From NCBI GenBank assembly GCA_016190245.1, contig JACPQY010000008.1, positions 45,938-109,937 on the forward strand: a stretch of DNA of 64,000 bases. The letters run 5' to 3'. Each line of letters starts with the position of its first letter. Position 1 is the first letter of the stretch. Made by a program: the position numbers and the translations under genes. Of this stretch, positions 1,006-51,349 are shown in pieces. The notes beneath the pieces are model-generated. The model did no database searches and was not told where the DNA came from. It saw only the letters and a list, made by a program, of their open reading frames with translations. This DNA comes from Nitrospirota bacterium. GTDB lineage: Bacteria; JACPQY01.

Positions 1006-1022
1006 TCGGCCCGCGGCCCGAT

Positions 1023-1084: not shown

Positions 1085-1112
1085 ACCGATTGAGGTCGCT
1101 CTACGCCGGTCG

Positions 1113-30678: not shown

Positions 30679-31233
30679 ATGGCGGGTGCGAAGCTGTCGA
30701 AGCGTTTGAGAGCCCCGGTGATCTTGCGCCTCGTGTGCGGCCTTGCGGTCGCCGCCCTCTTCCCGGCCGGGGGCGCGTGGGCCCAAACGTGCGATTTCAT
30801 CATGCTGGACATTGACCACAAGTCGCTGGTTCGTGCGGGTGAGGACCATCCCTTCAATGAACTCTACGAGGCAGGGGATCGCTCCCTCGCCCATCTCGTG
30901 ATGGGTGTCCCCGAAGCGGGCGATTCGGCGGAGATGTCCCTCCGCTGGCGGAATACGCTGCGGGGCTACTCCTGGTGGATGGCGGCCGCCGGCGTGGCGA
31001 CCCTCGGCGCGGCAGGTCTCACCCTCGCGATGCAGGACCGCGGGGGGGCCCAGGAGTTCGGGGCCGGGATCGGCCTGGGCATCTTCTTGGGGATTGACGG
31101 GTTCCTTGCCTACAAGGCCAGCCGCGCGAACATGTGGTCGTTTCACTACATGGTCGAGGCCGTCAACCGCTTCAACGCGCAGCGCTGCTGCCCGGACGCC
31201 AGCACGATCTACCCCGAGCACCCCGTCGAGTAG
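30679..31233 (+). CDS. Hypothetical secreted/membrane protein
   Basis: It has a signal peptide (LVCGLAVAALFPAGGAWAQ) and a C-terminal Gly-rich hydrophobic segment. No family is recognisable to me. Confidence 0.4.
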   Translation: MAGAKLSKRLRAPVILRLVCGLAVAALFPAGGAWAQTCDFIMLDIDHKSLVRAGEDHPFNELYEAGDRSLAHLVMGVPEAGDSAEMSLRWRNTLRGYSWWMAAAGVATLGAAGLTLAMQDRGGAQEFGAGIGLGIFLGIDGFLAYKASRANMWSFHYMVEAVNRFNAQRCCPDASTIYPEHPVE

Positions 31234-31259
31234 CCCGCTCCAGCACGAGCGGGACTTGG

Positions 31260-31335
31260 TGGTGGAGCTGAGGGGATTCGAACCCCTGGCCTCGTCGTTG
31301 CGAACGACGCGCTCTCCCAACTGAGCTACAGCCCC
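31260..31335 (-). tRNA. tRNA-Ala (anticodon CGC)
   Basis: The 76-nt sequence GGGGCTGTAGCTCAGTTGGGAGAGCGCGTCGTTCGCAACGACGAGGCCAGGGGTTCGAATCCCCTCAGCTCCACCA folds as a cloverleaf. It has the G3:U70 Ala identity pair, the anticodon loop TTCGCAA, and an encoded CCA. Confidence 0.9.
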
Positions 31336-31343
31336 ACGGGTGG

Positions 31344-31377
31344 GTAAAGAGTAAAGGGTAAAGGGTGAAGTGTAAAG
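31344..31377. repeat. Tandem imperfect hexamer repeat (GTAAAG x4-5 on the + strand, CTTTAC on the - strand) immediately upstream of tRNA-Ala
   Basis: I read it directly from the sequence. The region is AT-rich in a GC-rich genome. Its TTTACA-like units resemble stacked -35/UP elements. Confidence 0.4.
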
Positions 31378-31399
31378 TGGGGCCGACAGCCGCCGAGCG

Positions 31400-32602
31400 T
31401 CACGGCTGCAGATCCTTGAGCTGCCTCATCAGGAAGACATCCAGGATGGGGTTGCCGGTTCCGCTCCCGTTGCCGCCGACGATGGTGGTGGGCACCTTGA
31501 TGTCTTTGAGCGCGTTGGCCACGCCGATGAGCGTCTCCTTCTTCATTTGCAGCTTCAACTCCAGCGAGTTGTCCGCCCTCGCCAGCGCCGCGCGCCCCTC
31601 CGCTTCCTTGATGGCCGCAATCTTCTTCCCCTCCGCCTCCTCCACGCGCTGCCGCTTTTCGAGCTGGGCTTGCTCGAAACGGATCGCCGCGACCTCTCGT
31701 TCCTTCTCCGCCCCGATCCTCGCCACCTCCTTTTCCGTCTCCGCCCGGATTCTGGCCTCCAGCTTCTTGTGCTCCTCCTGCGCTTTGGCCTCCGCCAACA
31801 GCTTCTCCTCCTCGGCGCGAGCCGTGAGTGTTTCCTGCTTCAGCTTCTCCGCGGCCAGCGACGCATTGTTCCGCTGCTGTTCGAGGAGCCGGTGCTCGTC
31901 GAGCTTGGCCTGGGTCTGGCCATCGTACTCGATCGACTTGAGCGTGAACTCGCCGATGGTGATGCCGAACTTGCTGTTCAGGCCGGGTAGCCGCCTGGGT
32001 GTTTCACCGTCGGAGGCGGGAAGCATGGCCACGTTCCCGTCCACGATCTTCCTCTCGAACGCAACGGGACCGTTCTGGAGCGAGTCCAGAACGTCACGGA
32101 TGAGCCGTCCCCTCTCCCGCACGCTGTCGCCGCTCTCGTAGGAAGAGGCCACGAGGTTCAGGACACTGTTCACGTGCGCCCTAATCATCCTCTTCAGGAC
32201 GGCCTCGCTGCGGGCCGTCTGGACGATGCGTTTCATGTTCTCGTCGTCGGCGGGGAGGGTGTAGCGCACGCTGCCGTTGATGGCGCCTTCGCCGTTGTCC
32301 TTGAAGATCACCGCGATGGCTTCTTCAACCTTCTTCTTGTCCTTCTTGCGCTCCACGTAGGTGTCCGTGAAACCGACCGTGTCCGAAACCTGAAACTCGG
32401 TGACCTTTCCGAACGGACCCTTCCAGTACAGGCCCGGGGTGGAGACGACCTCCAGGTTGCCGCTCGGCCACTTCTGAAGGACATGGTGGTAGCCGGCGGT
32501 GTTGTTGCCGAACAGCCAGAAGGCCGACAGGAGCGCCACCACCAGGGCGACCCCGAGCCTGAGCACGGGTTGTTTGCTGAGCGCGATTCGTTCCGAGTTC
32601 AT
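31400..32602 (-). CDS. SPFH/band-7 (flotillin/prohibitin-like) membrane protein
   Basis: It has an N-terminal TM segment, an SPFH core, and a C-terminal Glu/Ala/Lys-rich coiled coil (EAKAQEEHKKLEARIRAETEKE). Confidence 0.75.
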   Translation of the reverse strand: MNSERIALSKQPVLRLGVALVVALLSAFWLFGNNTAGYHHVLQKWPSGNLEVVSTPGLYWKGPFGKVTEFQVSDTVGFTDTYVERKKDKKKVEEAIAVIFKDNGEGAINGSVRYTLPADDENMKRIVQTARSEAVLKRMIRAHVNSVLNLVASSYESGDSVRERGRLIRDVLDSLQNGPVAFERKIVDGNVAMLPASDGETPRRLPGLNSKFGITIGEFTLKSIEYDGQTQAKLDEHRLLEQQRNNASLAAEKLKQETLTARAEEEKLLAEAKAQEEHKKLEARIRAETEKEVARIGAEKEREVAAIRFEQAQLEKRQRVEEAEGKKIAAIKEAEGRAALARADNSLELKLQMKKETLIGVANALKDIKVPTTIVGGNGSGTGNPILDVFLMRQLKDLQP

Positions 32603-32628
32603 CTCAACCTCCTCTCACACTTCGATCT

Positions 32629-33510
32629 TCACGGCCCGGCGGATACGCAGCGAAATCCCAGATCGTCCCGGGTCGCGTTCGGCGCGAGCCGTTGCCTGGC
32701 GGAAACGCGCAGCTCGTGATCCGCACTTTTCCAGGATCCCCCCCGGACGACCTTCAGATGACGGTTGATACGAACGTGAGGATTGTCCTCGTCCGCTTCC
32801 CGGTAGAGTTCGTAGCCGTCCGCCGTCCATTCCGAAACATTTCCCGCCATGTCATTGACGCCGAACCCGTTCATGGCGTAGCTGCCGATGCGTATGGCGC
32901 CCGGCGGGATATGCCCTTCCGCTCCCCCCCCCCGCACGAGGTGGGGCTGGAAGACCGGCCCCCAGGGATAGTCCATGGCGTCCGCCCCGCCACGGCCCGC
33001 ATATTCCCATTGTGCCTCGGTGGGGAGCGCCCGACGGGCCCACTCCGCGTACGCCGCCGCCGCGTGCCAGCTCACGTACACGACCGGGTGGCTTCCCTTC
33101 CCGGCGGGGAACTCAAGGCCGTCCCAGTCCGCGAGATAGTCAAGGTCGGCCAGATCGGTTTCGACGCTGCCCTTTCTCCAGGCCGGAGTCTCTTCCACGA
33201 AGCGGCGATACTGCTCGTACGTGACTTCGTAGCGCGCCATCTCGAACGGGCGGAGGGTGACGGCATGGACGGGCCTCTCGTCGAAGAAACCGCCGTCGCT
33301 CCCCATCAGAAAACGACCGCCGGGGATCTCGACCATCTCCGAGTCGTCCGATGCGGGTGTGGGGGCGAGCGGCGCGTGAAGGCGCTTGATCGCGACCACC
33401 GCCGCAATCAGCAGGAGGGCGCCCGCAGGTATGACCAGGCGCCTCTTCGCGAACAAGGCCGCGATCTCCCGCAGCCCGGCTCGATCCGCCGCTTGGGCCA
33501 TCGTCGTCAT
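32629..33510 (-). CDS. FGE-sulfatase (formylglycine-generating-enzyme/NirV-like) domain protein with an N-terminal membrane anchor
   Basis: Motifs are MVEIPGGRFLMGS, YEVTYEQYRRF, and VVRGGSWKSADHELRVSARQ. The start overlaps the stop of the upstream octaheme cytochrome gene as ATGA. Confidence 0.8.
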   Translation of the reverse strand: MTTMAQAADRAGLREIAALFAKRRLVIPAGALLLIAAVVAIKRLHAPLAPTPASDDSEMVEIPGGRFLMGSDGGFFDERPVHAVTLRPFEMARYEVTYEQYRRFVEETPAWRKGSVETDLADLDYLADWDGLEFPAGKGSHPVVYVSWHAAAAYAEWARRALPTEAQWEYAGRGGADAMDYPWGPVFQPHLVRGGGAEGHIPPGAIRIGSYAMNGFGVNDMAGNVSEWTADGYELYREADEDNPHVRINRHLKVVRGGSWKSADHELRVSARQRLAPNATRDDLGFRCVSAGP

Positions 33511-34772
33511 TTCTCGGCAAACCTGGTCCTGTCCTTTTGTTCGCGCAGCTCGCGCATCATGTGTTCCAGCTCGAGGCGATGCTTGGCGAGCTCATAGAAG
33601 CCGTGCCACTGGGTGAAATCCGGCCCCATCATGGAAGCGCCCATTCGGGCCCGGCGCCCCTCGTGGTGCCAGAACTCGAAGAACTTGAACTCGATCTCCT
33701 CGTCGAACTTCTCCTCCGTCAAGTATCCCCCCTTGTACAACTGATCCATCGCCTCCTTGATCGGTTTGAAGTAGTCGTCGTTGTAAAGGCCGATGACGTT
33801 GTCGAATTGGACATAGTGGTTCTCCACCCAGTTTTTCGAGTGGCACGAGAGGCACACCTTCTTCATCCGCGTTCGCTTGCCTTCCCAGTCATCCGTCTTG
33901 ATGGTGAGAGGATGTTCCAGTTCCCAGGAGAGGCGGTCACTTACGTTGTGGGTGGTCTCCAGTTCGCCGAGGCCCGACATGTGGCACGTGGCGCACGTGG
34001 GCGCCCGGTAGTGTTGGGTGTCCCACGCCTTCCCGGCGACCTCCATGTCCCAGGACCGGCCTTCCGACGCGTAAATGACCCCGTGCTTCGATTCCATGTA
34101 GATCTCGTACTGCGGATGGTCGGGGCCCATGTGGCAGGTGCCGCACGTTTCCGGTTTCCTCGCTTCGGCCACGGAGAACCGATGGCGGGTGTGACAAGCG
34201 GAGCACGACCCGCGGCTGCCGTCCGGGTTGATGCGGCCGATACCGCCGTTCGGCCACGTCTGGGGATCGAGCTTCCCGTTCTCGGCCTTGACGAGCGAAC
34301 CGTGGCACTTCTCGCATCCCATGACGGCGGCGGCTTTGCCTTCCACTTTGTAGGCGAGGGCATCGTCGCCGGCTCTGTCTCCCTCGAGGTTCAGGAGGAA
34401 TGAAACCGCCTTGGCGTGGAGCGACTGATTGAACTCGGCCACCTGCCTCGGATGGCAGCGGGAACAGTCCTTGGGACTGACCACGGCCGAGATGTAGGCC
34501 CCTTCGTGCGCCCTGGCGTCCGGGTCGGAAGGCGCCGCCTCGTGGCAGTCGATGCATGTGACCTCGGCCTTCGCATGAAGGCTTCTCTCCCAATCGTGGA
34601 CGATGCCGGGGGACGAGCGCTCGTGGCAGACCTCGCATTTCTCCGACACGATCTTCTGGTGTGCGAACCGGTCGCGACTGTCCGCCGAGGCGGACCGCAA
34701 GGGAGTCGCCAGGGCCGCGAGGAGGGCGAGCAGAAGTTGCGACAAGACAATGAGTGCGGTTCGGGTCGGCAT
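33507..34772 (-). CDS. Octaheme c-type cytochrome, hydroxylamine-oxidoreductase (HAO/ONR) family
   Basis: There are eight CxxCH motifs (CEVCH, CIDCH, CSRCH, CEKCH, CSACH, CGTCH, CATCH, CLSCH). The signal peptide is MPTRTALIVLSQLLLALLAALATP. I chose the start at that Met (34772). The ORF-track N-terminal extension is low-complexity. Confidence 0.8.
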   Translation of the reverse strand: MPTRTALIVLSQLLLALLAALATPLRSASADSRDRFAHQKIVSEKCEVCHERSSPGIVHDWERSLHAKAEVTCIDCHEAAPSDPDARAHEGAYISAVVSPKDCSRCHPRQVAEFNQSLHAKAVSFLLNLEGDRAGDDALAYKVEGKAAAVMGCEKCHGSLVKAENGKLDPQTWPNGGIGRINPDGSRGSCSACHTRHRFSVAEARKPETCGTCHMGPDHPQYEIYMESKHGVIYASEGRSWDMEVAGKAWDTQHYRAPTCATCHMSGLGELETTHNVSDRLSWELEHPLTIKTDDWEGKRTRMKKVCLSCHSKNWVENHYVQFDNVIGLYNDDYFKPIKEAMDQLYKGGYLTEEKFDEEIEFKFFEFWHHEGRRARMGASMMGPDFTQWHGFYELAKHRLELEHMMRELREQKDRTRFAEK

Positions 34773-35032
34773 CCAGCCTTCGCAGCCGGAGCTGCTCCCG
34801 CCTTCGCGACTCGTGCTACGCAGCGAGCCTACTCCGCCGACCCCTGCGCGTACCTTGGCCCAGGAGGGCCTGGTCCCGCGCGGTGTGGCCCTGTCCGCCG
34901 CGGCGGAGAAGGCAGGGCAATGTGACCGTGGCCCGCCTGCCGGGGCGGCGCGGGCAGGTAGGGGCGGCCTGGGCCGCCCGGTTGACAGGATAGGCACGCC
35001 TATTCCGTCACACCGCCCACGTACGAAGGCAC

Positions 35033-35563
35033 TCATGTCCGGTCCCCCTTGTCCACGTGGACGAGGTTCTCGTGGCAGTCCAGGCACGTGGAGTTCGCTC
35101 GACCGTTCAGGAACGCGCGGTGGGCGATCAGGCCGCCCTTGGGCAGCGCCGGAGGAAGGAGATCCTTGTGGCATTCCCGACAGGAATCGGGGTGAATGTT
35201 CCGCACGGCCTGCCGCCTCCATTCCTCGCGATCCATTTCGGCGGGGTCCGACAGGACGTGCACGACCGAGTCTTTCACGCCCTGCATGATCTTGGCTCTC
35301 CACCGGTCGACCGTGCCCGGCGGAAGATGGCAGTCGGCGCACTCCGCCACGACGCCGCGGTCGTTCACCGCATGGGATGACTCCCGGTACTGCCGGTAGG
35401 ATTCGCCCATTTCGTGGCACGAGACGCAGAAACGCGTCGTGGACGAATAGTGGAAGGACCAGAGGGTGACCCCGTAGGAGCCGGCGACAAAAGCGGTCGT
35501 GGCCGCTGCGATCACGGCGACTTGTCGCTTGCCGGGCCACAATTTCGGCGAGATCGTCTTCAT
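35033..35563 (-). CDS. nrfH: NapC/NirT/NrfH-family membrane-anchored tetraheme cytochrome c (quinol dehydrogenase)
   Basis: It has an N-terminal TM anchor and four CxxCH motifs (CVSCH, CADCH, CRECH, CLDCH). The start overlaps the amt stop as ATGA. Confidence 0.85.
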   Translation of the reverse strand: MKTISPKLWPGKRQVAVIAAATTAFVAGSYGVTLWSFHYSSTTRFCVSCHEMGESYRQYRESSHAVNDRGVVAECADCHLPPGTVDRWRAKIMQGVKDSVVHVLSDPAEMDREEWRRQAVRNIHPDSCRECHKDLLPPALPKGGLIAHRAFLNGRANSTCLDCHENLVHVDKGDRT

Positions 35564-36885
35564 TGATACTTGGTCGTTTGCAATGGGAATTCGGGGTAGG
35601 CGGAAGCGGAGTGCTCCGAGTAGTCCAACCCCGCGAGTTCGTTTTCCCTGTCGACTCTCAGCCCGATGGCCATCGCAATCAGCCTGAAGACAAAGTAGGA
35701 AAGGCCGAAAGCCCAGATGAAGGCGAGGGCGGAGCCGAGGAGTTGGATCAGGATGTTCTTGGGGCTGAAGAGCTCGCCCGTCTTGAAGAACCCGACGGCG
35801 ATCGTCCCCCAGACGCCACAGACGCCGTGGACGGATACGGCGCCAACCGGATCATCCATGCGTCGCCTCTCGAGGAACAGCACCGAATGAACCACCACGA
35901 TGCCGGCCGCGATGCCGATGACCACCGCCCACACGGGTTCCACGGTGGCGCAACCAGCCGTGATGCCCACGAGCCCGCCGAGCGTGCCGTTCAGTGTCAT
36001 CCCGACGTCGGGCTTTCCGAACTTGAACCAGGAGGTGACCATGCTGGACACGGCGGCGGCCGCGCCGGCCAGGGTGGTGTTGATGAGCACCTGCGCGATC
36101 TTCCCGTCCCCGGAGAGCGTGTTGCCCGCGTTGAATCCGTACCAGCCGAACCACAGGATCAGGGTTCCGAGCGCCGCGAGGGGGAGGTTGTGGCCGGGAA
36201 GCGGGGATGCCCTCCCGTCGTCTCTGAATTTCCCGATTCTCGGCCCGAGCACGAGCGCACCGGCGAGTCCGGCCCAGCCTCCAATGGCGTGAATCACGGT
36301 CGAGCCGGCGAAATCCACGAAACCCAGGTTGGAAAGCCATCCGTCCCCGTTGTAACTCCCGCCCCACACCCAACTGCCGAAGACCGGGTAGATGAACGTG
36401 GACATGGCGACCGTGAAAAGGAGCGAACCGACAAAGCGCGTCCGCTCCGCCATCGCGCCTGAAACGATCGCGGCAACGGAGGACACAAACACAAGCTGGT
36501 ACATCCAGAACGCGAACAGCCAGGGGTCCTGGTTCTGGGCGTAGTCGTGCAGAAAGAAACCGTCCGTGCCGAAGAGCCCGTTCGTCGTTCCGAACATCAG
36601 GCCGAACCCGAATGCCCAGAAGGCGATGGCACTCACGGCGAAGTCCATGATGTTTTTCATGATCGCGTTGACGGCGCTTTTCGCCCGCGTGAATCCGATC
36701 TCGACCAGGCTGAAGCCCGCCTTCATGAAGAAGACCAGCACGGTGGCCACGCAGATCCACACGATGTCGAGGTTGGCCTGGACGTCTTCCGATGTGGTGG
36801 GGTTGGCCGCGCGGGCGGCATGGGCTGCATCCGCCGCGAGGAGCCATGCGGCAAGAATCCACCCGAAGACGGCGGGACGACTCAT
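35560..36885 (-). CDS. amt: Ammonium transporter (Amt/MEP family)
   Basis: It has a signal peptide and 11 TM segments, with the signature DFAGSTVIHAIGGWAGL...AVSVHGVCGVWGTIAVG. I chose the start at MSRPAVFGWILAAWLLA (ATG at 36885), not the ORF-track start at 37251. Confidence 0.85.
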   Translation of the reverse strand: MSRPAVFGWILAAWLLAADAAHAARAANPTTSEDVQANLDIVWICVATVLVFFMKAGFSLVEIGFTRAKSAVNAIMKNIMDFAVSAIAFWAFGFGLMFGTTNGLFGTDGFFLHDYAQNQDPWLFAFWMYQLVFVSSVAAIVSGAMAERTRFVGSLLFTVAMSTFIYPVFGSWVWGGSYNGDGWLSNLGFVDFAGSTVIHAIGGWAGLAGALVLGPRIGKFRDDGRASPLPGHNLPLAALGTLILWFGWYGFNAGNTLSGDGKIAQVLINTTLAGAAAAVSSMVTSWFKFGKPDVGMTLNGTLGGLVGITAGCATVEPVWAVVIGIAAGIVVVHSVLFLERRRMDDPVGAVSVHGVCGVWGTIAVGFFKTGELFSPKNILIQLLGSALAFIWAFGLSYFVFRLIAMAIGLRVDRENELAGLDYSEHSASAYPEFPLQTTKYQ

Positions 36886-37188
36886 CGCCCCGAGTCGCCC
36901 AAGCACGATGCCCTTGGGGTTCTTGATTCCGTCCCCGCCGGTCGGCGGGGACTTCGCTCGAACAATACCGCGCTGTGTGCAGGCCACGCCGCTCCGCCGC
37001 ACTCGGAGTGTGCAGGCTTCGGGCACTCGAAGACGTGTCCTGGCCTGCTTTCCTTTCGTGGCACGTGGACCTTGCTCTCGAAGCCGCAAGGTCCACGGGC
37101 TTCTTGCCCAGGTGTCGAGAAGCTCATTGTCCTGGGTGTTCGATGGGTTGGGCATCGTGCAATCCGAATCATCATCGACAATGGTGCG

Positions 37189-37205
37189 TTGCAAGGCCCG
37201 TGCCA
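37189..37205 (-). promoter_or_regulatory. Sigma-54 (-24/-12) promoter candidate: TGGCACgggccTTGCA
   Basis: It matches the TGGCAC-N5-TTGC consensus exactly with correct GG/GC spacing. It points toward amt and lies about 300 nt upstream of the amt start codon. Confidence 0.55.
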
Positions 37206-37244
37206 GCCGTTTTGACCACGTGGGAGCGCCCCCGCGCAACAATC

Positions 37245-37261
37245 CTGTCACGGGGTGACAG
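37245..37261. promoter_or_regulatory. Perfect palindrome CTGTCAC-GGG-GTGACAG (NifA-UAS-like TGT...ACA) upstream of the sigma-54 promoter
   Basis: I read it directly from the sequence. It lies about 50 bp upstream of the -24 element. It is a candidate enhancer-binding site for the adjacent GAF-sigma54 activator. Confidence 0.3.
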
Positions 37262-37304
37262 ACATGAGGCGGCCTGACGCAGACCGACCTCGCGCGGAGG
37301 AGAG

Positions 37305-39269
37305 CTATGCGACCGAAACGTCGCGCACGGCTACGTGGTACCGTCGGATCCGATAGCGGAGCTGGCGCGGAGACATGCCGAGTTTCCTGGCCGCGGCCGC
37401 CTGGTTCCCCTTCGTTTCGCGTAGCGCCTCCGCGATGACCCGGCGCTCGTAGGACTGGATGGGTGGGAGGGCCGCGCCCTCACCACCCTGCTCGGCGGCC
37501 GTTTCGCCTGGGGGAACCGAGGCAGGGTTTGAAAGCGGGGCCGCACTCGGCCCCGGCATCAGCCGCCCGTCCGTGGGACGGTCTGGTGGGCCGAGTACGT
37601 ACGCCCTGCAAGGCTCCGCGCAAAGCGTACGGCCTTCCTGCGTCGGCAGGAGGAGTCGCTCGGCCTCGATCGAGCCCCCCGGCAGGAGCACGGCGAGTCG
37701 CTCGGCCAGGTTTTCGAGTTCGCGGATGTTGCCCGGCCAGGCGTGCGCCTCGAGCTTGCGAAGGGCCGCCGGTGTCCACCTGAGATTCTTGCCGTACTCC
37801 TTCGCGAAATGGCGCAGGAAGTGCTCCGCAAGCAGCGGGATGTCCTCCCGGCGGTCGCGCAGCGGCGGGAGGACGATGGGGACCACGTTGAGCCGATAGT
37901 AGAGGTCCTCGCGGAACTCACTCCGCGCGACCATCTGCTCGAGATTCCGGTTCGTGGCCGCGATGATGCGGACGTCCACACGCACCCCGTTTGTTCCGCC
38001 GACCCGCTCGAAGGCGCGCTCTTGGAGGAACCGGAGAAGCTTGACCTGCGTGGCCGGTGGGATTTCGGCGATCTCGTCGAGGAAGAGCGTGCCCCCGTTC
38101 GCCTCTTCGAGAAAACCCCGCTTGCGCTCGTGGGCGCCGGTGAAGGCGCCCTTCTCGTGCCCGAACAGGCCGGTCTCCAGGAGCGTCTCGGGAATGGCGG
38201 CGCAGACGACTTTCACGAAGGGCCGGGTGGAGCGATGGCCGTCCGCATGGAGGGCGCGCGCGACCAACTCCTTCCCGGTTCCGCTCTCGCCCCGGATGAG
38301 GACCGTCGCCCGGCTGTTCCGAGCCCGCTCGATGGCCTCGAAGACGGGGGCCATGCTGGGGCTGTCGCCCAGCATGTCTTCGGCACTGCGGCGGCGAGTC
38401 CGTCCTCGCCCGGACACGCGGGGGGGGGGCGAGACCCCGTTGGCGACGGAAGGGAGTTCGCCCGCGTTCAACCACGCATGACCGAGAAACCGGGCAAGCG
38501 TTCGCAAAACCCGCATTTCGTCCCGCAGCGGGCCGTGACGCTCGACCATTCGATCCACGCCGAGCGCACCGACCACTTCACTCCCCGCCCGAATCGGCAC
38601 GCTGAGGATGGCCATCCTCGTGCCGGGGTCCCATCCGCTCGCACGCGCGACCCGGCACAAGTCCGGCTCTTGCGAGAGATCGGGCACTACAAACGGACAC
38701 CCCGTCTTCACAACCGTCTCCATGATCTGCCGGCCGACGGGACAGGCCGGGTCGCCGCCCGCCCCCAGAGGACTCAGCCCGCAGGAGCAACGGACTCGAA
38801 CGATTTCATCCGTGTCCGATTTCGACGCGTAGCAGGCCCGGCTGAAACCGAGAAAATCCACGAGGACGCCGAGAAAAAGATTGAGTCGTCGGTCGAACGG
38901 CTCAGGCCCGAGAAGGATTCCAGCCGCCTCGTGGAGGGTGGAAACCTCCCGGGCTCTTCGATCCAACTCCCGACGTAGCTCAAGCACTCCGAAAACACTA
39001 CACCGCAACTGCCGTGCCACACGCGCGAGAGGCTTCGGGTGTAACTCCAGGTGATGTTTTGGGATTGGCAACGGCCGCTCGAGACAAAGGGCCTGGCCCG
39101 CGGACAGATGCACCCGCTTGGTGCATGGCGCACAAACCTGCGGCAAGCGATTCGCCTCGGGGGGGGGGTGAACGCGCAGGCCGATAAACGCCCCAGTTCT
39201 CCGAACTGCTGCTTCCTTGGATTGCTTCTCCGCCGGCTGGTCCGCCACGGCGGACTGGCGGATCGCCAT
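37305..39269 (-). CDS. Sigma-54-dependent transcriptional activator, NifA-like (GAF - AAA+ sigma54 activation domain - HTH)
   Basis: The GAF region is upstream. The AAA+ domain has GESGTGKE (Walker A) and the GAFTGA motif (EKGAFTGAHE). It also has DVRIIAATNRNL and a C-terminal Fis-type HTH (AARKLGMSPRQLRYRIRRY). Confidence 0.85.
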   Translation of the reverse strand: MAIRQSAVADQPAEKQSKEAAVRRTGAFIGLRVHPPPEANRLPQVCAPCTKRVHLSAGQALCLERPLPIPKHHLELHPKPLARVARQLRCSVFGVLELRRELDRRAREVSTLHEAAGILLGPEPFDRRLNLFLGVLVDFLGFSRACYASKSDTDEIVRVRCSCGLSPLGAGGDPACPVGRQIMETVVKTGCPFVVPDLSQEPDLCRVARASGWDPGTRMAILSVPIRAGSEVVGALGVDRMVERHGPLRDEMRVLRTLARFLGHAWLNAGELPSVANGVSPPPRVSGRGRTRRRSAEDMLGDSPSMAPVFEAIERARNSRATVLIRGESGTGKELVARALHADGHRSTRPFVKVVCAAIPETLLETGLFGHEKGAFTGAHERKRGFLEEANGGTLFLDEIAEIPPATQVKLLRFLQERAFERVGGTNGVRVDVRIIAATNRNLEQMVARSEFREDLYYRLNVVPIVLPPLRDRREDIPLLAEHFLRHFAKEYGKNLRWTPAALRKLEAHAWPGNIRELENLAERLAVLLPGGSIEAERLLLPTQEGRTLCAEPCRAYVLGPPDRPTDGRLMPGPSAAPLSNPASVPPGETAAEQGGEGAALPPIQSYERRVIAEALRETKGNQAAAARKLGMSPRQLRYRIRRYHVAVRDVSVA

Positions 39270-39383
39270 GTGACGCCCCTCTCCTGTCGTCGCGAGCCCC
39301 GACTGGGCGCGGCGATCTCGCGTCAGGGCATTCCGGGCATCCGTCTTCGAGAACTTCCGGAATCCGGGCTACAATCGGATGAG

Positions 39384-40373
39384 ATGGAGATCAAGGTCAG
39401 GGTGCTTGGGAGCCGGGATCTTCGCCAAGTGGCACGGATGCGAGAGGTGATGGAAGCGGTGGAGGGTGCCTTCCGGGCGTTAGCGAAGGGCGAGGCGCAG
39501 ATGCCGTCCAAGTTGTACGTGAGCCTCCCCGAGCACGAGGGCGATTTCCGAGCGATGCCCGCCCACCTGCGCCATCTAAACGCCGCCGGGTTGAAATGGG
39601 TGACGTCCTACGCGCGCAACACGAGCGTCCCGGCGGTGATGGGCGTGTACATCCTGAGCCGTGCCGACGACGGCCGTCCGCTCGCGATCATGGATGGGAC
39701 GTATCTCACCGGTCTGCGCACCGGCGCCGCTGCGGGCGTTGCGAGTCGCGCGCTCGCTCGGCCGGAGTCGGCCGTGTTCAGCTTTGTCGGTTGCGGTCAC
39801 CAGGCGCGCACGGCCTGGGAGGCCCTGCGAGGGGTGTTTCGTCCCGCCGAGGTCCGGCTGTTCGACCTGAATCCTCAGAAGGCCGAGGAGATGGTGGGCA
39901 TTCTCAAGGACGCCGGACTCACGATCAAGATGTGCCGCTCGGTGACCGAGTGCGCGAAGGGTGCGGACGTGCTCACCACCACCACGCCGTCCCGGAGGCC
40001 GGTCGTGGCCGAGGTCGACATCTTGCCGGGCACACACATCAACGCGATGGGAGCCGATGCGAAAGGCAAGCAGGAGCTCGATGCGGCCATTCTGAAGCGG
40101 GCTGTCGTTGTGATTGACGACTGGGACCAGGCACTCCACAGCGGCGAAGTGAACGTCCCGCTTTCGGAAAGGCGTCTCACGCGCGACGACATCCGGGCCT
40201 CGCTCGGGGAGATTCTAATCGGGCACCGCCCCGGCCGCCGCGATCCCAGCGACGTGACGGTTTTCGACTCGACCGGCCTGGCCGTCCAGGACCTCGCCGT
40301 GGCCCACCTCCTCTACACGCTCTGCGTGGAAGCCGGCCTGGGTGCCCAGGTGGAGCTCTACTCGGAGCCGTAG
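39384..40373 (+). CDS. Ornithine cyclodeaminase / mu-crystallin family protein
   Basis: The Rossmann motif is SFVGCGHQART, and the OCD-family core is conserved. I chose the start at MEIKVRVLG (ATG at 39384). Confidence 0.7.
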   Translation: MEIKVRVLGSRDLRQVARMREVMEAVEGAFRALAKGEAQMPSKLYVSLPEHEGDFRAMPAHLRHLNAAGLKWVTSYARNTSVPAVMGVYILSRADDGRPLAIMDGTYLTGLRTGAAAGVASRALARPESAVFSFVGCGHQARTAWEALRGVFRPAEVRLFDLNPQKAEEMVGILKDAGLTIKMCRSVTECAKGADVLTTTTPSRRPVVAEVDILPGTHINAMGADAKGKQELDAAILKRAVVVIDDWDQALHSGEVNVPLSERRLTRDDIRASLGEILIGHRPGRRDPSDVTVFDSTGLAVQDLAVAHLLYTLCVEAGLGAQVELYSEP

Positions 40374-40432: not shown

Positions 40433-42406
40433 CTACGGCTCGGTCAGGCGATTGGTGGCGAGGAGGTAGTTCGAGAGCCGGTAGATGGTCCAGAGGCGGT
40501 CCCGCATGGGCGCGATTGCTTCTTCGGCGTCGGTGACCGGTTCTTCCGAGAACCCGCCCGTGAAGGTGGTGCGATACTCATCCGTGCCGAACGTGTAGGT
40601 GAGTTTTCGGTCGGCCTCCACGAGTGCGATCGGGGCCTCGCCAAAGGGTGTGCTGAAATAGGCGAAGCGGTCAGAGGCTGAGGTCAGCAGGGAACGTCCC
40701 CACCACGGTGTGTCGGTCTCGAGCCCGAGCAGATCGGCGAGGGTCGGCGCGATGTCGATCTGGCCGCCGAGCGTGTCGTCCGGCGTCGCTTGCAGGGATT
40801 CGTCGCCGGCATAGAGCAGGAAGGGGATGCGCATGTTCTCTTCACCCAGTCCGGCGAGGACGCCGGCACCCTCGGCATCGAAGGACATCCCGTGATCGGC
40901 AAAGATCGCAAAAAGCGTATGTCGGAAGAACGGGCGCTCCCGTACACGTTCGAAGAACCGCCGGAGGGTGTCGTCTGTGTAGCGCACGGTGGAGCGGTAG
41001 CGTTCTTCGATGGATTCGGCGTCCACGCGGAAAGGCGCCGGGGCCTCGTAGGGGGAGTGGTTCGAAAGCGTGAGCGTAATCCCCACGAACGGCTCGTTGA
41101 GGCCGTCGAGCACGCCCGCAAACGCCCCGAGCGTGGCCTCGTCGTGCACGCCCCAGGAGAATCTCGGCGCGCTGCGGGGGAAGGACTCGTAGCCGCTGAA
41201 CCGGCGGATTCCCTGCCGGGAGAAGAAGGCGTACATGTTGTCATAGCTGATGTCGCCCCCGTACACGAAGGCCGTGTCGTATCCTCGCGCGATGAGGAGT
41301 TCAGGCAGGCACGTGAGCCGCGTGTGAGGCGCAATCTTGAGGAGGCGCTCGCCATGGAAGTCGGGTGTGGAACAGAAAGAGGAGACGAGGCCGCGGATCG
41401 TCTGGACGCTGCTGGCATAAAAGCGGCTGAAGAGAACGCCCCTCTGCGCGAGTTGATCGAGGAAGGGAGTGGGGCTGGGTCCGGACCGATCCCAGAGCGC
41501 GCCGATTTCCCTCGCCCGAACGCCCTCCAGGATGAGGAAGACCAGATTGTAGGTCTTATAGCGACCGCGGATCCTGCTCGCGACGCCGGCCGGCGTGTGA
41601 AGGATCCCCTCCCCGGCAACCTGCACCGACTCCACGCCGAGCCAGCTAAGAACCTTGTCGCGGTCACCGGGCTCGGGTGTGGGATAGTTCCTGAGGTCTC
41701 GCGTCTGGTGAGCCACTCGGACGAAACGGATCAGGAGGTTGTCCGACAGATGGATGAACGCCTTGGGTGTGCGGACGATATCGGCGACGTGAAGGGCGTG
41801 GGCGACGGCGAGGTAGGCTACGATCGCCGCGCCCGCCCCTGCGAATGCGCGAGCTAAGCGCCGCTCGCCGATCCGTGCCGCGAGGCGCGACTGGAGCGGC
41901 GCGGCCAGGGGCGCCAGGCCGATCGTCACGAGCCACAGGCCGAGCAGCGTCCACTCGGTGGGATGGAAATGCGCCTCCTTCCAGAGCATGTCCCCGATCT
42001 GACCGAGCTCGCCCGCGTACCAGAGGAACCTCTGGTCCAGGTGAAGGCGGAAGCCCCTGTACACGGGGAGATCAACGACGTACAGGAGGGCGGTCGCGAG
42101 GGGGATCGCGAGGACCGTGAAGGCGAGAGCGCCTGCGAACCGGCGGGCGAGGCCGTGGGACTGAAACCGCCCGGCGGCGAAGCGAAGCGCCGCCAGGAAC
42201 CCGAAGGCGGCAAGAAGGAGCGAGCCTTCGATGCGGACGTGTCTCAGGAGGGAGAGCGCCGTCTCCCGGGCCGTGAGCCCCTGTTCGACGAAGAGCGCGA
42301 GGCGGGCCAGCGAACTGAGGATGAGGCACGAGCCGAGGATGGCGGCATCCGCCCGGAGCCGCCCCGCCGTGTGAGTTAAGGTGTAACCTGACACGCTTTT
42401 CGGCAT
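40433..42406 (-). CDS. Membrane-anchored sulfatase-fold (alkaline phosphatase superfamily) enzyme, LtaS/phosphoglycerol-transferase-like
   Basis: It has multiple N-terminal TM helices and a C-terminal PF00884-like domain (LVFLILEGVRAREIG...). There is no C/S-x-P-x-R FGly motif. The start is ambiguous (between 42406 and 42448). Confidence 0.65.
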   Translation of the reverse strand: MPKSVSGYTLTHTAGRLRADAAILGSCLILSSLARLALFVEQGLTARETALSLLRHVRIEGSLLLAAFGFLAALRFAAGRFQSHGLARRFAGALAFTVLAIPLATALLYVVDLPVYRGFRLHLDQRFLWYAGELGQIGDMLWKEAHFHPTEWTLLGLWLVTIGLAPLAAPLQSRLAARIGERRLARAFAGAGAAIVAYLAVAHALHVADIVRTPKAFIHLSDNLLIRFVRVAHQTRDLRNYPTPEPGDRDKVLSWLGVESVQVAGEGILHTPAGVASRIRGRYKTYNLVFLILEGVRAREIGALWDRSGPSPTPFLDQLAQRGVLFSRFYASSVQTIRGLVSSFCSTPDFHGERLLKIAPHTRLTCLPELLIARGYDTAFVYGGDISYDNMYAFFSRQGIRRFSGYESFPRSAPRFSWGVHDEATLGAFAGVLDGLNEPFVGITLTLSNHSPYEAPAPFRVDAESIEERYRSTVRYTDDTLRRFFERVRERPFFRHTLFAIFADHGMSFDAEGAGVLAGLGEENMRIPFLLYAGDESLQATPDDTLGGQIDIAPTLADLLGLETDTPWWGRSLLTSASDRFAYFSTPFGEAPIALVEADRKLTYTFGTDEYRTTFTGGFSEEPVTDAEEAIAPMRDRLWTIYRLSNYLLATNRLTEP

Positions 42407-42428
42407 CATGTCTCGGCAGGATTCTGCC

Positions 42429-44549
42429 ATGGCTGTTTCGGAACGCACGCGGTTTGTCCGCTGGGCCCTGTTCGTGGGCCTACTGGCCTTTGCCGCCCAG
42501 TTCGCTTTCTCGCTCGCGTTCCTGACGAGTCAGGCGATCATGGGAGTCCAGGACCCCCGACTGGGGGAGTTGTTCAGGAAGTACTTCCTCGTGTCCGCCG
42601 GGCTGATGCAACTGCGGATCCTGGCGGCCTATTCCGCCGTGGGTCTCGCGCTCTCCGCGGTGGCCGTGCTGCCCTTCTCTGTCTTTCGCCCGGGGTCGCG
42701 ATGGCCCTTGCCGGTGCGATGGCTCGGTTTCTCTCTGGTTCTCATGTGCCTCCATTTCGGGTTCGTCTGCGCCGACATCCAGTCTCACCCCCAGAACTAC
42801 GCCGAGTTTCTCTACGATCGGGGGGGGGGATGGCGAAGCCTGCAAGTCCTGCTCACGGACGGCGGCGTCGGGATATGGGCGCGACGCTGCTCATGGGTTT
42901 TGACAGGGGCCTGCGTCCTGCCGGCGGCGGCCGCGGCCCTTTTCCGATGGCCTCGGCGGACGCTCGTTTTGGGAGGGGTCGTGCTCGTGCTCGCGTGGAG
43001 CGTGCAGCTATCCCCTGTGATCTCCGGTAACACGGGGCCCAATGTGATCGTGATCGCCGTTGATTCCTTCCGGTCCGATCGGCTCTTTTCCCCCATCACG
43101 CCGCGAATCAGCCGCCTCGCCGAGACCGGCGTGACCTTCCTTCGCGCCTATCCCGATGTCGCCCGCACCTTCCCCTCCATGGTGACCATCCACACGGGTC
43201 GCTACGCCCTTCGACACGGCATCCGGCACATGTTCCCTACGATCGAGCAGCGGGCGGCCATCGGCCAGACCCTGCCCCGCTTCCTCCGCGATCGTGGATA
43301 CGAGACGGCGGTGGTGGCCGACTACGCGGGGGACATCTTCCCCCGCGTGGACTTGGGGTTCAGCCGAGTGGACTGTCCGGACTTCACTGCCGGCACCCTC
43401 ATGGAGCAACGAGCGCTCGAAACCCATCCATTCCTTCTCCCGTATGTGAGCAACCGGTGGGGGATGCGGATCTTCCCGGCCCTTCGGGAATTCACCAGCC
43501 TCAGCGAACCGGCCGAGCTGGCCGCTCGCGGCAAGGAGATGATCGGGACACTCTCGCGCGCCCCGCGCTTCTTCCTGACGATCTTCTTCTCGTCAGCCCA
43601 TTTCCCCTACGCTGCCCCACACCCGTACTACGGACGGTTCACCGATCCCTCCTATCGCGGCCCGTACAAGTATCACAAGGCCAACCGGATAGACCTCGCG
43701 GAGGAAACACTCACGCCCGAGGATCGAGCCCAGGTACGCGGACTCTACCACGGGGCGCTCTACGCCGCCGATGAAGCCGCGGGCGATCTCATCCGCATGA
43801 TTCAGGAGTCCCCGCTCCGATCCAATACCTCGATCGTGGTGACGGCGGATCACGGAGAGAACTTGTACGAACCGGCCCGGTTTTGCACTCGACCCGTCGC
43901 GCCGAGCCGGGAGGGTGAGGTCGCCTCGGTCGAGTGCGAACACGGCTGGATGGGACACGGCGATGAACTCTGGAACGAAGAGGGTCTGCGCGTGCCGATG
44001 GTCTTCATCGGTCCCGGTCTCAACCCGCGGCGAGTCGAGGATGTGCCGATCTCGTTGGCGAGCCTTGCTCCCACGCTGGTGGAATGGCTTGGATTCCGAC
44101 TGGAAGACTACGGGCTCACGGATGGCGAGAGCCTCTCCGCGGCGCTGCGAGGCGGCCCTCCGCCGGAGACGCCGATCTACCTGGAAACGGGAGCGTGGTT
44201 CGTCCCGAGGGGACCGGCAAGGTTTCATCGGGAGCGGATTCCCTACGCGAGTCTCCTCGACTTCACGGAATTGGACGTGGATCACAACTTCGAGGTCGTG
44301 GCGCGTCCCGAATACGAACCGATCATCAACGGGAGCAAGCATCGCGCGGTCATGGAAGGGGATCGCCGACTCGTCTACATCCCGCTCCGGGATCGTCCGC
44401 GCTATGAACTTCTGCGCATTCGGGGCTACGAAACCGCGCCGATGGAGGACGAGAAGGAACTCGCTCGTCTGAAGCGGGAACTGGAGCGGATGATCACGGA
44501 GATCGGGACGGAAACGCTATCCAGCGGCTATTTCGTTGGGCCACACTGA
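42429..44549 (+). CDS. Membrane-anchored sulfatase-fold enzyme (alkaline phosphatase superfamily; Thr at the nucleophile position, EptA/LtaS-like)
   Basis: It has about 6 N-terminal TM helices, then NVIVIAVDSFRSDRL and ARTFPSMVTIHTGRY. The latter aligns to the sulfatase CTPSRAALLTGRY motif with T in place of C. The start is ambiguous (42408 or 42429). Confidence 0.65.
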   Translation: MAVSERTRFVRWALFVGLLAFAAQFAFSLAFLTSQAIMGVQDPRLGELFRKYFLVSAGLMQLRILAAYSAVGLALSAVAVLPFSVFRPGSRWPLPVRWLGFSLVLMCLHFGFVCADIQSHPQNYAEFLYDRGGGWRSLQVLLTDGGVGIWARRCSWVLTGACVLPAAAAALFRWPRRTLVLGGVVLVLAWSVQLSPVISGNTGPNVIVIAVDSFRSDRLFSPITPRISRLAETGVTFLRAYPDVARTFPSMVTIHTGRYALRHGIRHMFPTIEQRAAIGQTLPRFLRDRGYETAVVADYAGDIFPRVDLGFSRVDCPDFTAGTLMEQRALETHPFLLPYVSNRWGMRIFPALREFTSLSEPAELAARGKEMIGTLSRAPRFFLTIFFSSAHFPYAAPHPYYGRFTDPSYRGPYKYHKANRIDLAEETLTPEDRAQVRGLYHGALYAADEAAGDLIRMIQESPLRSNTSIVVTADHGENLYEPARFCTRPVAPSREGEVASVECEHGWMGHGDELWNEEGLRVPMVFIGPGLNPRRVEDVPISLASLAPTLVEWLGFRLEDYGLTDGESLSAALRGGPPPETPIYLETGAWFVPRGPARFHRERIPYASLLDFTELDVDHNFEVVARPEYEPIINGSKHRAVMEGDRRLVYIPLRDRPRYELLRIRGYETAPMEDEKELARLKRELERMITEIGTETLSSGYFVGPH

Positions 44550-46966: not shown

Positions 46967-48106
46967 ATGAAGATCGCCGTCAACCTGAAAACAGTGGCTC
47001 GTGAAACGATGGGGATCGGCGTCTACGCCATGGAGTTGGCGCGACGGTTTCCCGCGCACGCCCCCTCCCACCAGTTCACCTATCTCGTCCGATCGGACGA
47101 TGTTTTCGAGCCCGCCGACCGGGATCATCGCGTCCGGTACCTGGCTGTTCCCCCGTCTCTCCGGAGCAAGCAAGGGCTCATTCTATGGGAGCACCTGGGG
47201 ATGCCACACCGTTTTGATCGGGACGGCGCCGATGTGGTGTTTCTCCCGGAGACGGTGGTGCCTCTCCGCCGTTTCGATGCGCCTGCCGTCGTCACCGTAC
47301 ACGATCTGGCCTATGCCGAAGCCGGAGAGACGATGACCGTGGCCAAGAGGCTCTACAAAGGGTGGTCGGCCCGCCACGCGGCCGGCCGGGCGGCCCATTT
47401 TGTTGCGGACTCGGACTACACCGCCGAAAGCATGAACCGGATACTGGGTGTGCCTCGATCGAAAACGACAACGGTGCCGCTGGGCGTGGACGGCGAGATC
47501 TTCCGACCGATACCCGATCCGGATCGCCGGCAGCCCCTCTGGAGCCGACTGGGGATCGGCACGGCGCCCTATCTACTGTACGCGGGAAACATCAATCCCA
47601 AGAAGAACATCGGCATGCTGATCGAGGCGTATCGCGAGGTCAGGCGCCAATGGGGGAACGATCTTCGGCTCGTATTTTCGGGCAAGATCGGATGGAAACT
47701 GAACGAGTTGTCGGCCTGGATAGCGGGCGAATGGCGGGACGGCATCCGGCACGTCGGATTCCTCTCGCGCGAGGATCTGGTGATGCTCTACTCCGAGGCC
47801 GCCATGCTGGTGTATCCGAGCAGCCACGAAGGATTCGGTCTTCCCCTTGCCGAGGCGATGGCCTGCGGGTGTCCGGTGGTCTCCACTCGGCGCACTTCAA
47901 TCCCGGAGGTGGTGGGCGATGCCGGAATCCTGGTCGAGGATATTTCCCCGGCCACGCTCGGCGACGCCATTCTTCGGCTTCTCCGAGAGCCGGGACTTCG
48001 AACCGATCTCGTCGGACGCGGATTGGAACGCGCCCGCCTCTTTTCCTGGGACCGCGCGGCACGGTTGACCTTGGAGGTGATCGAAACCATCGGCCGGCAG
48101 CGTTAG
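46967..48106 (+). CDS. Glycosyltransferase family 4 (GT-B, group 1)
   Basis: It has the EGFGLPLAEAMACGCPVVSTRRTSIPEVVGDAG motif (E-x7-E region). Confidence 0.8.
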   Translation: MKIAVNLKTVARETMGIGVYAMELARRFPAHAPSHQFTYLVRSDDVFEPADRDHRVRYLAVPPSLRSKQGLILWEHLGMPHRFDRDGADVVFLPETVVPLRRFDAPAVVTVHDLAYAEAGETMTVAKRLYKGWSARHAAGRAAHFVADSDYTAESMNRILGVPRSKTTTVPLGVDGEIFRPIPDPDRRQPLWSRLGIGTAPYLLYAGNINPKKNIGMLIEAYREVRRQWGNDLRLVFSGKIGWKLNELSAWIAGEWRDGIRHVGFLSREDLVMLYSEAAMLVYPSSHEGFGLPLAEAMACGCPVVSTRRTSIPEVVGDAGILVEDISPATLGDAILRLLREPGLRTDLVGRGLERARLFSWDRAARLTLEVIETIGRQR

Positions 48107-48159
48107 GCTCTTCATCCGTGTTTGGCAGAAGAATCATCGAAGGGTAATATCCTGCCAAC

Positions 48160-48645
48160 GTGTCTTCCGAGTCGCTTGAAGCCTGGCAGATCAACACTGA
48201 ACGGATGGCCGAGCAGATCCGGGAAGCTCGCGCCCCCTGCCGCACGGAGGAAGACCTCAAGATGAGGGTCGATCCGATCCTTCGGTCCGCATTTGAAAAG
48301 ATCGGCCTCGACGTCGAGAGCGTGAGATACGAACACGCCACCGGTTACCACGGCCGCATTGACGCATTGTACGGCTTTATGATCATCGAGTACGAAGCCC
48401 CGGGGAAGCTGAAGACTCGTCAAGGTTACAACGAGAGCATCGGCCAACTTCAGGCATACCTTGACGAGACGGCCTCCACGTTGGGGCAGGATCGGAAGGC
48501 AATCTTTTCGATCTTGGTGGGCGTCGAACGGAATCGAATGCTCGAATCCGTCGTCTTGCGCTGCGGCCTTATAGTATGGCAGGATCGCCGCATGGCTGAG
48601 CATCATGAGGAAGGCGGTTTGGACCGGAGCGTTGGGAGCCGATAA
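48160..48645 (+). CDS. Hypothetical protein (island gene 1)
   Basis: The 161-aa ORF has acceptable codon bias. Its stop overlaps the next start as TAATG. No motif is recognisable to me. Confidence 0.4.
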   Translation: MSSESLEAWQINTERMAEQIREARAPCRTEEDLKMRVDPILRSAFEKIGLDVESVRYEHATGYHGRIDALYGFMIIEYEAPGKLKTRQGYNESIGQLQAYLDETASTLGQDRKAIFSILVGVERNRMLESVVLRCGLIVWQDRRMAEHHEEGGLDRSVGSR

Positions 48646-51144: not shown

Positions 51145-51349
51145 GCGATGATCGAGCATACGAGGTTTGGCATCCGGGGACCTTGATGATCCGTTCACAT
51201 AGGTTCCCCCTCCGCCACCCGAAGTTCGATCCCCGACACCGCTCCCACATTCGCCTTTGCGAACTTTCGGAAAAAGCGCACGAGAAGGTGAAACGCGGGA
51301 CGACCATTGATGACATTGACGGGGAAATAGACGAAAATGTGAGGAAGCT

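Follow-up and report, generated by a model that had tools for sequence, protein, structure and literature searches.

HAO-like octaheme cytochromes without the cross-linking tyrosine of HAO (Tyr-less cytochromes in the following) are very common in metagenomes, with more than 7,900 homologs obtained from one search, and their physiological role has so far mostly been guessed. What such a cytochrome does for its host is the question raised by a locus in a Nitrospirota bacterium (assembly GCA_016190245.1, contig JACPQY010000008.1, positions 45,938–109,937), a stretch of 64,000 nt to which we refer as the window. Here hao, the gene for an octaheme cytochrome, lies together with genes for an Amt-family transporter (amt), an NrfH-type quinol dehydrogenase (nrfH), a protein with the FGE-sulfatase fold, and a flotillin-like protein of the SPFH/Band_7 family. 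An earlier note, made from the sequence alone, had read these five genes as a sigma-54-driven operon in which nitrite or hydroxylamine is reduced to ammonium in the periplasm and the ammonium is taken up for assimilation. We find that the genes form a cassette that is conserved as a unit, and with moderate confidence we favor a nitrogen-regulated operon that would serve assimilation by linking periplasmic reduction of nitrite to ammonium with dedicated uptake through Amt.

All five genes are present and lie on one strand (table 1), and the Hao, Amt, and FGE-like proteins of the window are identical to MBI2889322.1, MBI2889324.1, and MBI2889321.1, respectively. The ATGA overlaps by which amt and nrfH, hao and the FGE-fold gene, and, at the window start, hisF, hisI, and nuoA had been described as translationally coupled are all real (35560–35563 for amt/nrfH and 33507–33510 for hao/FGE), and the gap between nrfH and hao has the claimed length of 260 nt. 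The FGE-fold and SPFH genes are separated by 26 nt, with a strong ribosome-binding site, and a tRNA-Ala gene lies downstream of the latter. The true start of amt is the ATG at 36885; a longer open reading frame that reaches 37251 is an artifact, as is the one that extends hao upstream. The grouping of the five genes as an operon agrees with what is seen elsewhere, in that all close relatives examined have this operon-like cassette with its genes in the same order, and a chance origin of the arrangement is not indicated.

To determine how far this conservation extends, we collected 175 loci that encode a protein related to Hao, Amt, or the FGE-like protein and searched them with six proteins of the window. 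Contig scans, limited to 600 candidate stretches, yielded mostly distant Hao relatives, and the close ones came from look-ups of exact proteins. An amt gene was defined as cassette type at an identity of at least 55%, and loci were assessed only if they had a flank of at least 2.5 kb upstream (for amt and nrfH) or downstream (for the FGE-fold and SPFH genes). Where Hao is at least 58% identical to that of the window, cassette-type amt and nrfH are each present in 13/13 loci and the FGE-fold and SPFH genes together in 10/10. At 50–58% identity none of these genes is found (0/13 for amt, 0/13 for nrfH, and 0/16 for FGE with SPFH). At 40–50% identity nrfH reappears in 47 of 92 loci, cassette-type amt in none of the 92, and the FGE–SPFH pair in none of 83; five of the 92 loci have an unrelated amt of approximately 32% identity. 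Overall, cassette-type amt and the FGE-fold and SPFH genes are absent from all of the approximately 150 loci in which Hao is more distant. A neighbor-joining tree groups the 18 Hao sequences from cassettes as one monophyletic clade, with no non-cassette members among them. Look-ups that started from the clade of the FGE-like protein landed in a cassette in four of four cases and those that started from Amts 68–73% identical to that of the window in two of two, and an Amt at 61% identity belongs to a plain glnK–amt pair. In 12 of 14 loci, nrfH and hao either overlap or are separated by no more than 80 nt.

The basal cassette (locus L009, Hao 59% identical) has the order glnK–glnK–amtB–amt–nrfH–hao followed by a porin gene and is without the FGE-fold and SPFH genes. 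From this arrangement, amt–nrfH–hao is the core of the cassette, to which the two accessory genes were added once. The source labels of the cassettes, which are subject to the caveats of binning metagenome-assembled genomes, are Nitrospirota, Nitrospinota, Planctomycetota, Kiritimatiellia, and marine "Deltaproteobacteria"; more than 150 contigs, some of them from Tara Oceans data, represent the marine lineage. Immediately downstream of the cassette, the loci labeled Planctomycetota have a second hao paralog of 46% identity (L007 6832–8175 and L008 8281–9624), and L007 has another NrfH-like gene further on (11081–11635).

Table 1. Genes and sequence elements of the locus (positions in the 64,000-nt window)
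Feature	Position	Strand	Description
NifA-like activator gene	37305..38987	(-)	GAF + Sigma54_activat (GAFTGA) + HTH_8 (Pfam); start at GTG 38987 inferred
amt	35560..36885	(-)	Amt-family transporter with signal peptide, 441 aa
nrfH	35033..35563	(-)	tetraheme quinol dehydrogenase, PF03264
hao	33507..34772	(-)	periplasmic octaheme HAO-family cytochrome c, signal peptide
FGE-sulfatase-fold gene	32629..33510	(-)	membrane-anchored, PF03781
SPFH/Band_7 (flotillin-like) gene	31400..32602	(-)	PF01145
Sigma-54 promoter TGGCACGGGCCTTGC(A)	37191-37205	(-)	points into amt, exact TGGCAC-N5-TTGC
Second exact sigma-54 -24/-12 element TGGCACGGCAGTTGC	39005-39019	(-)	directly upstream of activator start
Perfect palindrome TGTCACCCCGTGACA	37246-37260	unstranded	unique in window, 41 nt upstream of -24 element
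amt leader	36886-37179	(-)	~294 nt, structured (z = -3.5), 15-bp hairpin at 37061-37100
nrfH-hao spacer	34773-35032	(-)	260 nt, G+C-rich, hairpins, no T-tract terminator

The cytochrome encoded by hao has eight CXXCH motifs, all of them invariant across 35 relatives, and matches PF13447 (1e-33). Among solved structures, IhOCC (4qo5) is nearest to it in sequence, at E = 4e-44 for the protein alone and 2e-75 for a family profile, and most of Hao aligns to IhOCC in three stretches that include the C-terminal helical region. Further profile matches are Kustc0458 (1e-39), NeHAO (1e-39), KsHOX (8e-35), and HDH (2e-28), and NrfA is matched only remotely (E ~1e-6). The earlier note had kept a relationship to tetrathionate reductases in view; because the solved structures matched with the family profile at E ≤0.01 are HAO-type and NrfA chains only, with no chain named OTR or ONR among them, the cytochrome is not of that kind. 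Residues D218–H219, which are invariant in the relatives, align in HMMER with the Asp–His pair D267–H268 of NeHAO (SGVDHNNWE vs. MGPDHPQYE). For the cross-linking tyrosine, the NeHAO sequence around Tyr467 was verified against 4fas before alignment with MAFFT, which places Tyr467 opposite Gln388 (WTYTEGW vs. FTQWHGF); at this column the 35 relatives have Q, N, H, or W, and Hao of the window has no tyrosine at 386–389. We rejected F386, in the GPDF/GPDY column, as the cross-link position, because it is Gln388 with which Tyr467 aligns, and the interchange of Tyr and Phe at 386 looks structural. Given the absence of the cross-linking tyrosine, Hao is best classified, from its sequence, as a Tyr-less, reductive-type member of the HAO family, like epsilon-Hao, IhOCC, and Kustc0458. 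In vitro, epsilon-Hao and IhOCC reportedly form ammonium from nitrite and from hydroxylamine (work attributed to Haase 2017 and Parey 2016). No Campylobacterota label occurs among the 120 database entries closest to Hao.

The gene for Hao adjoins an NrfH-type gene, and the earlier description of an HAO-like octaheme reductase with an NrfH-type partner can be retained. NrfH has an N-terminal transmembrane helix and four CXXCH motifs, matches PF03264 at 3e-31, and reaches 78 bits with TIGR03153, which is under the cutoff of 134 and still the best score for any family. The CXXCHXM motif of heme 1 (CHEM) is invariant in eight cassette NrfH proteins. In L009, L091, and L092 the first heme motif is of the form CX3CH (CTVNCH or CSTKCH), and it is CX2CH elsewhere; the methionine that follows it is kept in both kinds of lineages.

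How this operon is likely to be controlled can be read in part from the region upstream of amt. The perfect TGGCAC-N5-TTGC element that had been noticed there is an exact match, and the window has two such matches where 0.10 are expected. Of 13 cassette lineages that could be assessed, 11 have a motif with at least nine of the ten consensus positions before amt; the background over the 3.8 Mb of collected loci is 0.025 such motifs per kb and strand. This conservation speaks for the sigma-54 control that the earlier note had proposed. The lineages without the motif before amt are the marine lineage and L092, and in L009 the motif sits upstream of the glnK–amtB–amt run. The activator gene upstream of amt encodes the GAF–AAA(GAFTGA)–HTH protein that had been described, with its domains confirmed by Pfam; among NCBIfam models its best match is NifA (TIGR01817, 462 bits over the full length, cutoff 529), followed by NorR at 314 bits. 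Its candidate starts are GTG 38987 and TTG 38966, and the second exact sigma-54 element directly upstream suggests that the activator is itself sigma-54 dependent, through a cascade or autoregulation. The palindrome TGTCACCCCGTGACA has the form TGT-N9-ACA and is a candidate binding site for the activator; the upstream activator sequence of NifA has the form TGT-N10-ACA.

The promoter lies approximately 306 nt 5' of the amt ATG, and because amt begins at this codon the leader is long. A scan of 31000–39500 with Rfam (E up to 1) returned tRNA only, with no riboswitch or leader RNA in the 5' untranslated region of amt or in the nrfH–hao spacer, and in an alignment of amt leaders from five lineages the promoter alone was conserved. 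We therefore dropped the idea of a conserved cis-regulatory RNA in the leader. The nrfH–hao spacer yielded no terminator when scanned for one, and it folds only moderately better than shuffled sequences do (z = -2.5). A spacer of this length is peculiar to the genome studied here; in the relatives the two genes overlap or lie up to 157 nt apart.

The neighborhoods of the cassettes in other genomes bear directly on the purpose of the system. In L170–L172 the cassette is followed by genes for a helix–turn–helix protein, a porin, and P-II, and then by amt and glnA; L174 has glnD/E, P-II, amt, glnA, and porin genes ahead of the cassette; in L092 glnA and in L009 glnK lie upstream. Directly 5' of the cassette in L174 (7025–8000) are a gene for an ANTAR response regulator and, in the leader, a sigma-54 motif and a strong hairpin that is followed by a U-tract (z = -6.2), a combination that matches the sigma-54-plus-antitermination logic of nas operons. 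The regulators that adjoin the cassette thus vary from the NifA-like GAF protein of the window to an NtrB/NtrC-like pair in L001 and the ANTAR protein in L174, and in L170 and L171 to a response regulator with an unassigned output domain. The assimilatory use proposed in the earlier note gains from both the repeated adjacency of glnK, amtB, and glnA and the nas-like control in L174. Immediately 5' of the response regulator, cassette, and P-II–amt–glnA island of L171 lie Tn7-like genes (1–4488; a TnsA-like protein, a Mu-type transposase, TniB, and TniQ), and the island could be transposon cargo.

The same neighborhoods also contain genes that would suit a dissimilatory or protective role, in which NrfH and Hao respire or detoxify nitrite, NO, or hydroxylamine in a manner resembling dissimilatory nitrate reduction to ammonium, Amt recaptures or vents ammonium, and nitrogen assimilation is a by-product. 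The genes directly upstream of the cassette in L173 best match NapA, NapG, and NapH, all under the curated cutoffs, and L001 has a NapH-like gene, as well as hcp, near its cassette. Moreover, quinol oxidation of the NrfH type is the respiratory module of NrfAH, and nrfH–hao pairs without amt, as in the 47 of 92 loci counted above, are common in Desulfobacterota and Planctomycetota. However, the sigma-54 promoters, the NifA-like activator, the ANTAR protein, and the glnK/glnA context are hallmarks of assimilatory rather than respiratory regulation, and amt is both the first gene of the operon and specific to the cassette. We therefore regard a dissimilatory or protective role as unlikely.

In the assimilatory scheme that we prefer, nitrogen limitation would cause sigma-54 together with an enhancer-binding protein to switch the operon on, and in this genome the adjacent NifA-like GAF activator would drive the sigma-54 promoter of amt. 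The membrane-anchored NrfH would draw electrons from the quinol pool, the periplasmic Tyr-less octaheme cytochrome would reduce nitrite (and hydroxylamine) to ammonium, and the cotranscribed Amt would import the ammonium for glutamine synthetase and glutamate synthase (GS/GOGAT). The pFGE-like and flotillin-like proteins would act as dedicated membrane-associated accessory factors in assembly or scaffolding. In this scheme we infer which substrate is used and what is formed from it, the path of the electrons, the direction of transport, and the response to nitrogen status; the gene content, order, and coupling, the conservation of cassette and promoter, the reductive type of the cytochrome, and the nitrogen-assimilation context are observed.

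Several observations weigh against this scheme. The lack of the tyrosine is no guarantee that ammonium is the product, and Kuenenia HAOr (Kustc0458) reportedly makes NO (attributed to Ferousi 2021). The 260-nt spacer between nrfH and hao could hide an unrecognized terminator or promoter, and glnA, glnK, nap, and hcp are all absent from the 64-kb window. In L001, hcp lies 1.3 kb from the cassette. The remaining points concern Amt, whose nearest solved relatives are ammonium receptors with which it shares part of the receptor site (see below). The window protein is a bona fide member of its family (PF00909 at 3e-115; TIGR00836 at 414 bits, cutoff 343) and keeps the tryptophan, both Phe-gate residues, and the twin histidines, equivalent to W144, F103, F223, H171, and H326 of Ks-Amt5 (numbering from PMC5764959). 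The serine of its selectivity filter (S219 of EcAmtB and S227 of Ks-Amt5) is replaced by asparagine. The asparagine is found in every cassette with FGE-fold and SPFH genes apart from the marine lineage, which has alanine, and the serine is retained in the basal cassette of L009 and in the non-cassette glnK–amt locus L175. In the marine lineage (L003–L006 and L090, five independent assemblies), the sequence WYASSGSATL stands in place of WYGFNAGNTL (e.g., L003 2784–2852), and the second Phe-gate residue is lost as well. The transported product may be either ammonium or hydroxylamine.

The second of these products is the one expected from a variant of the route termed reverse-HURM, in which Hao would reduce nitrite by four electrons and release hydroxylamine, the specialized Amt would import the hydroxylamine, and a cytoplasmic Hcp would reduce it to ammonium. 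The published route, with AmtB as the conduit for hydroxylamine, has been proposed for Nautilia profundicola and is supported by transcripts in that organism (PMC2628731, PMC3701875). The loss of the filter serine, which recruits substrate, in all cassettes with the two accessory genes points in the same direction, as does the hcp gene near the L001 cassette. A link between hcp and hao, often with nrfH, is also seen in 10 of 65 loci of the 40–50% identity class (e.g., L112, L105, L017, L019, L024, L070, and L077), which are a different context from the amt-linked cassette. On the other hand, hcp is found within 8 kb in only one of approximately 14 cassette loci, the window has none, and the genes that recur as neighbors are glnK, amtB, and glnA rather than hcp. 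The characterized epsilon-Hao and IhOCC, moreover, are those that reportedly yield ammonium, and on balance we consider release and import of hydroxylamine improbable.

A further possibility is that Amt is less the main route of uptake than a sensor of ammonium, or of the product more generally, that tunes the enzyme complex as a transceptor. The solved structures nearest to the window Amt are the ammonium receptors Ks-Amt5 (1e-93) and Sd-Amt1 (6e-88), ahead of Af-Amt1 (8e-58) and EcAmtB (3e-53). Four to five of the seven residues of the N1/N2 receptor site are kept: the signature is QX6EX15NX2D[F/T]...TX2[S/T] (PMC11152129), and the corresponding residues in the window are K, E, N, D, F, A, and S. 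The equivalents of E31, N47, and D50 of this site are conserved together with the bulky F27 and F34 (PMC5764959, PMC11152129). However, the signature is incomplete, with lysine at Q24 and alanine at T109, and there is no fused transducer domain in the 441-aa protein. The sequence cluster of these receptors ("cluster 2") also holds bona fide transporters (PMC11152129), and the closest non-cassette relatives, at approximately 60% identity, are ordinary Amts from plain glnK–amt pairs. A sensor role in place of uptake is thus very unlikely in our view.

With uptake for assimilation as the preferred role of Amt, the two accessory proteins are still to be accommodated. The FGE-like protein matches PF03781 at 5e-55 and has an N-terminal membrane anchor. 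The catalytic cysteine pair of FGE (C-terminal RGGS...C...C) is absent from it, as follows from the lack of any invariant cysteine among six cassette proteins, and among solved structures it is matched best by the inactive human paralog pFGE/SUMF2 (1y4j). It belongs to a separate clade of approximately 43 clusters, whose E-values lie between 1e-98 and 5e-73 and are set off from the next value, 1e-57. The earlier note had likened it to NirV, a protein of unassigned function (PMC4770552), and the annotated neighbors of the cassette include no nirK. The SPFH protein matches PF01145 at 5e-13 and has no sequence match among solved structures; in an AlphaFold2 model built from the single sequence, a helix of approximately 140 residues (228–366) has a pLDDT mostly of 85–92 and a transmembrane helix spans 11–39, and the rest of the model is poor (overall pLDDT 53.5). 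Because both proteins are strictly cassette specific, their distribution argues for a dedicated function, which may lie in assembly, stabilization, or scaffolding. As they accompany only this Hao clade and the Amt with the serine-to-asparagine change, they might go so far as to form a membrane or periplasmic scaffold or cage like that of HflK/C that holds NrfH, Hao, and Amt together and channels hydroxylamine, NO, or ammonium into an Amt with retuned substrate preference, so that these are not lost by diffusion; we offer this as speculation with a low probability of being correct. If true, it would be a "nitrite-assimilation metabolon" of a kind undescribed for any nitrogen-cycle enzyme.

Three genes of the sulfatase family (PF00884) lie at 40433–46948, approximately 7 kb from the FGE-fold gene; the product of the first (40433–42448) has a hydrophobic N-terminal half before the domain, and a sulfatase gene also follows the cassette in the related locus L169 (11551–13194). 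We considered whether the FGE-like protein serves the sulfatases near the window cassette and rejected this as unlikely, as the protein is without catalytic cysteines and its gene always travels with hao; for the former reason the proximity is probably a coincidence. Divergent from the activator gene is a gene of the ornithine cyclodeaminase/mu-crystallin family (39051–40373, plus strand), whose enzymes liberate ammonia from amino acids. The G+C content is 0.57–0.59 at 48000–54000 and approximately 0.65 elsewhere in the window; this segment lies at and just upstream of a cluster for glycosyltransferases and polysaccharide export and may have been acquired horizontally.

The earlier note had held that a linkage of this kind was undescribed, and here it went too far. 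An octaheme cytochrome c (OCC, or "ONR") encoded beside amtB, glnK, and glnA in Nitrospira has been described as a putative assimilatory periplasmic nitrite reductase, with support from expression and with a Rieske/cytochrome b partner (PMC5767232, PMC6311188, PMC12342949), and the reverse-HURM model routes the Hao product through AmtB (PMC2628731, PMC3701875). For Deferribacter, an amt gene has been noted "close to" a nap–hao–hcp cluster (PMC6896113). Full-text searches of the literature, with incomplete coverage, yielded no description of the five-gene cassette, its conserved sigma-54 promoter, the substitution in the Amt filter, or the two accessory genes. The concept is thus known already, and the cassette, the change from serine to asparagine in Amt, and the accessory genes are apparently undescribed. 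What the cassette adds is unusually clear genomic evidence for the participation of one Hao clade in nitrogen assimilation, because amt is first in the operon, the promoters are of the nitrogen type, and glnK and glnA are neighbors. If our interpretation is true, the idea developed for the Nitrospira OCC would extend to a second system that is driven by quinol through NrfH, the natural serine-to-asparagine change would offer a testable handle on the old question, raised by reverse-HURM, of whether Hao products pass through Amt proteins, multiheme nitrite reductases would gain two new accessory proteins, and the scoring of "hao" genes in metagenomic inventories of the nitrogen cycle would change.

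Among the closest known systems is that of Nitrospira, represented in our set by L088, with the layout glnA–amt–amt–Rieske–cytb–OCC–nirA, and L083. Koch (2015) is reportedly another source on this OCC locus. Its cytochrome, like Hao of the window, is an octaheme member of the HAO family whose gene adjoins amtB, glnK, and glnA (46–47% identity for L088 and L083). It differs in belonging to another Hao clade and in having a Rieske/cytochrome b module as electron donor where the cassette has NrfH; genes for FGE-like or SPFH proteins are found in none of 83 loci of its class, and the Nitrospira amt genes are only approximately 32% identical to cassette amt and do not head a shared operon. Reverse-HURM and epsilon-Hao share with the window a Tyr-less Hao and a tetraheme partner of the NapC/NrfH type (HaoC) and share with our proposal the entry of the Hao product through AmtB during growth on nitrate or nitrite nitrogen (PMC2628731, PMC3701875). 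In Nautilia, however, hao, cycB, amtB, and hcp are dispersed and the proposed route runs through hydroxylamine and Hcp, and neither sigma-54 control nor an FGE-like or SPFH gene is reported for the epsilon-Hao of Nautilia or Campylobacter. IhOCC, from the archaeon Ignicoccus hospitalis, is longer (521 aa) and only distantly similar, with a C-terminal part that needs a profile to be aligned. In NrfAH, a quinol dehydrogenase of the NrfH type with CXXCHXM at heme 1, such as the window also encodes, feeds a periplasmic multiheme nitrite ammonifier; the catalytic subunit there is the pentaheme NrfA and the system is respiratory and unlinked to amt. Finally, nas operons, which are controlled by NtrC/sigma-54 and by NasR/NasT antitermination, resemble the cassettes in their sigma-54 promoter, to which L174 adds the ANTAR protein and the leader terminator; they encode cytoplasmic sirohaem enzymes (NasB/NirA) where the cassette encodes a periplasmic heme enzyme, and in the window a NifA-like GAF activator takes the place of the nas-type ANTAR protein.

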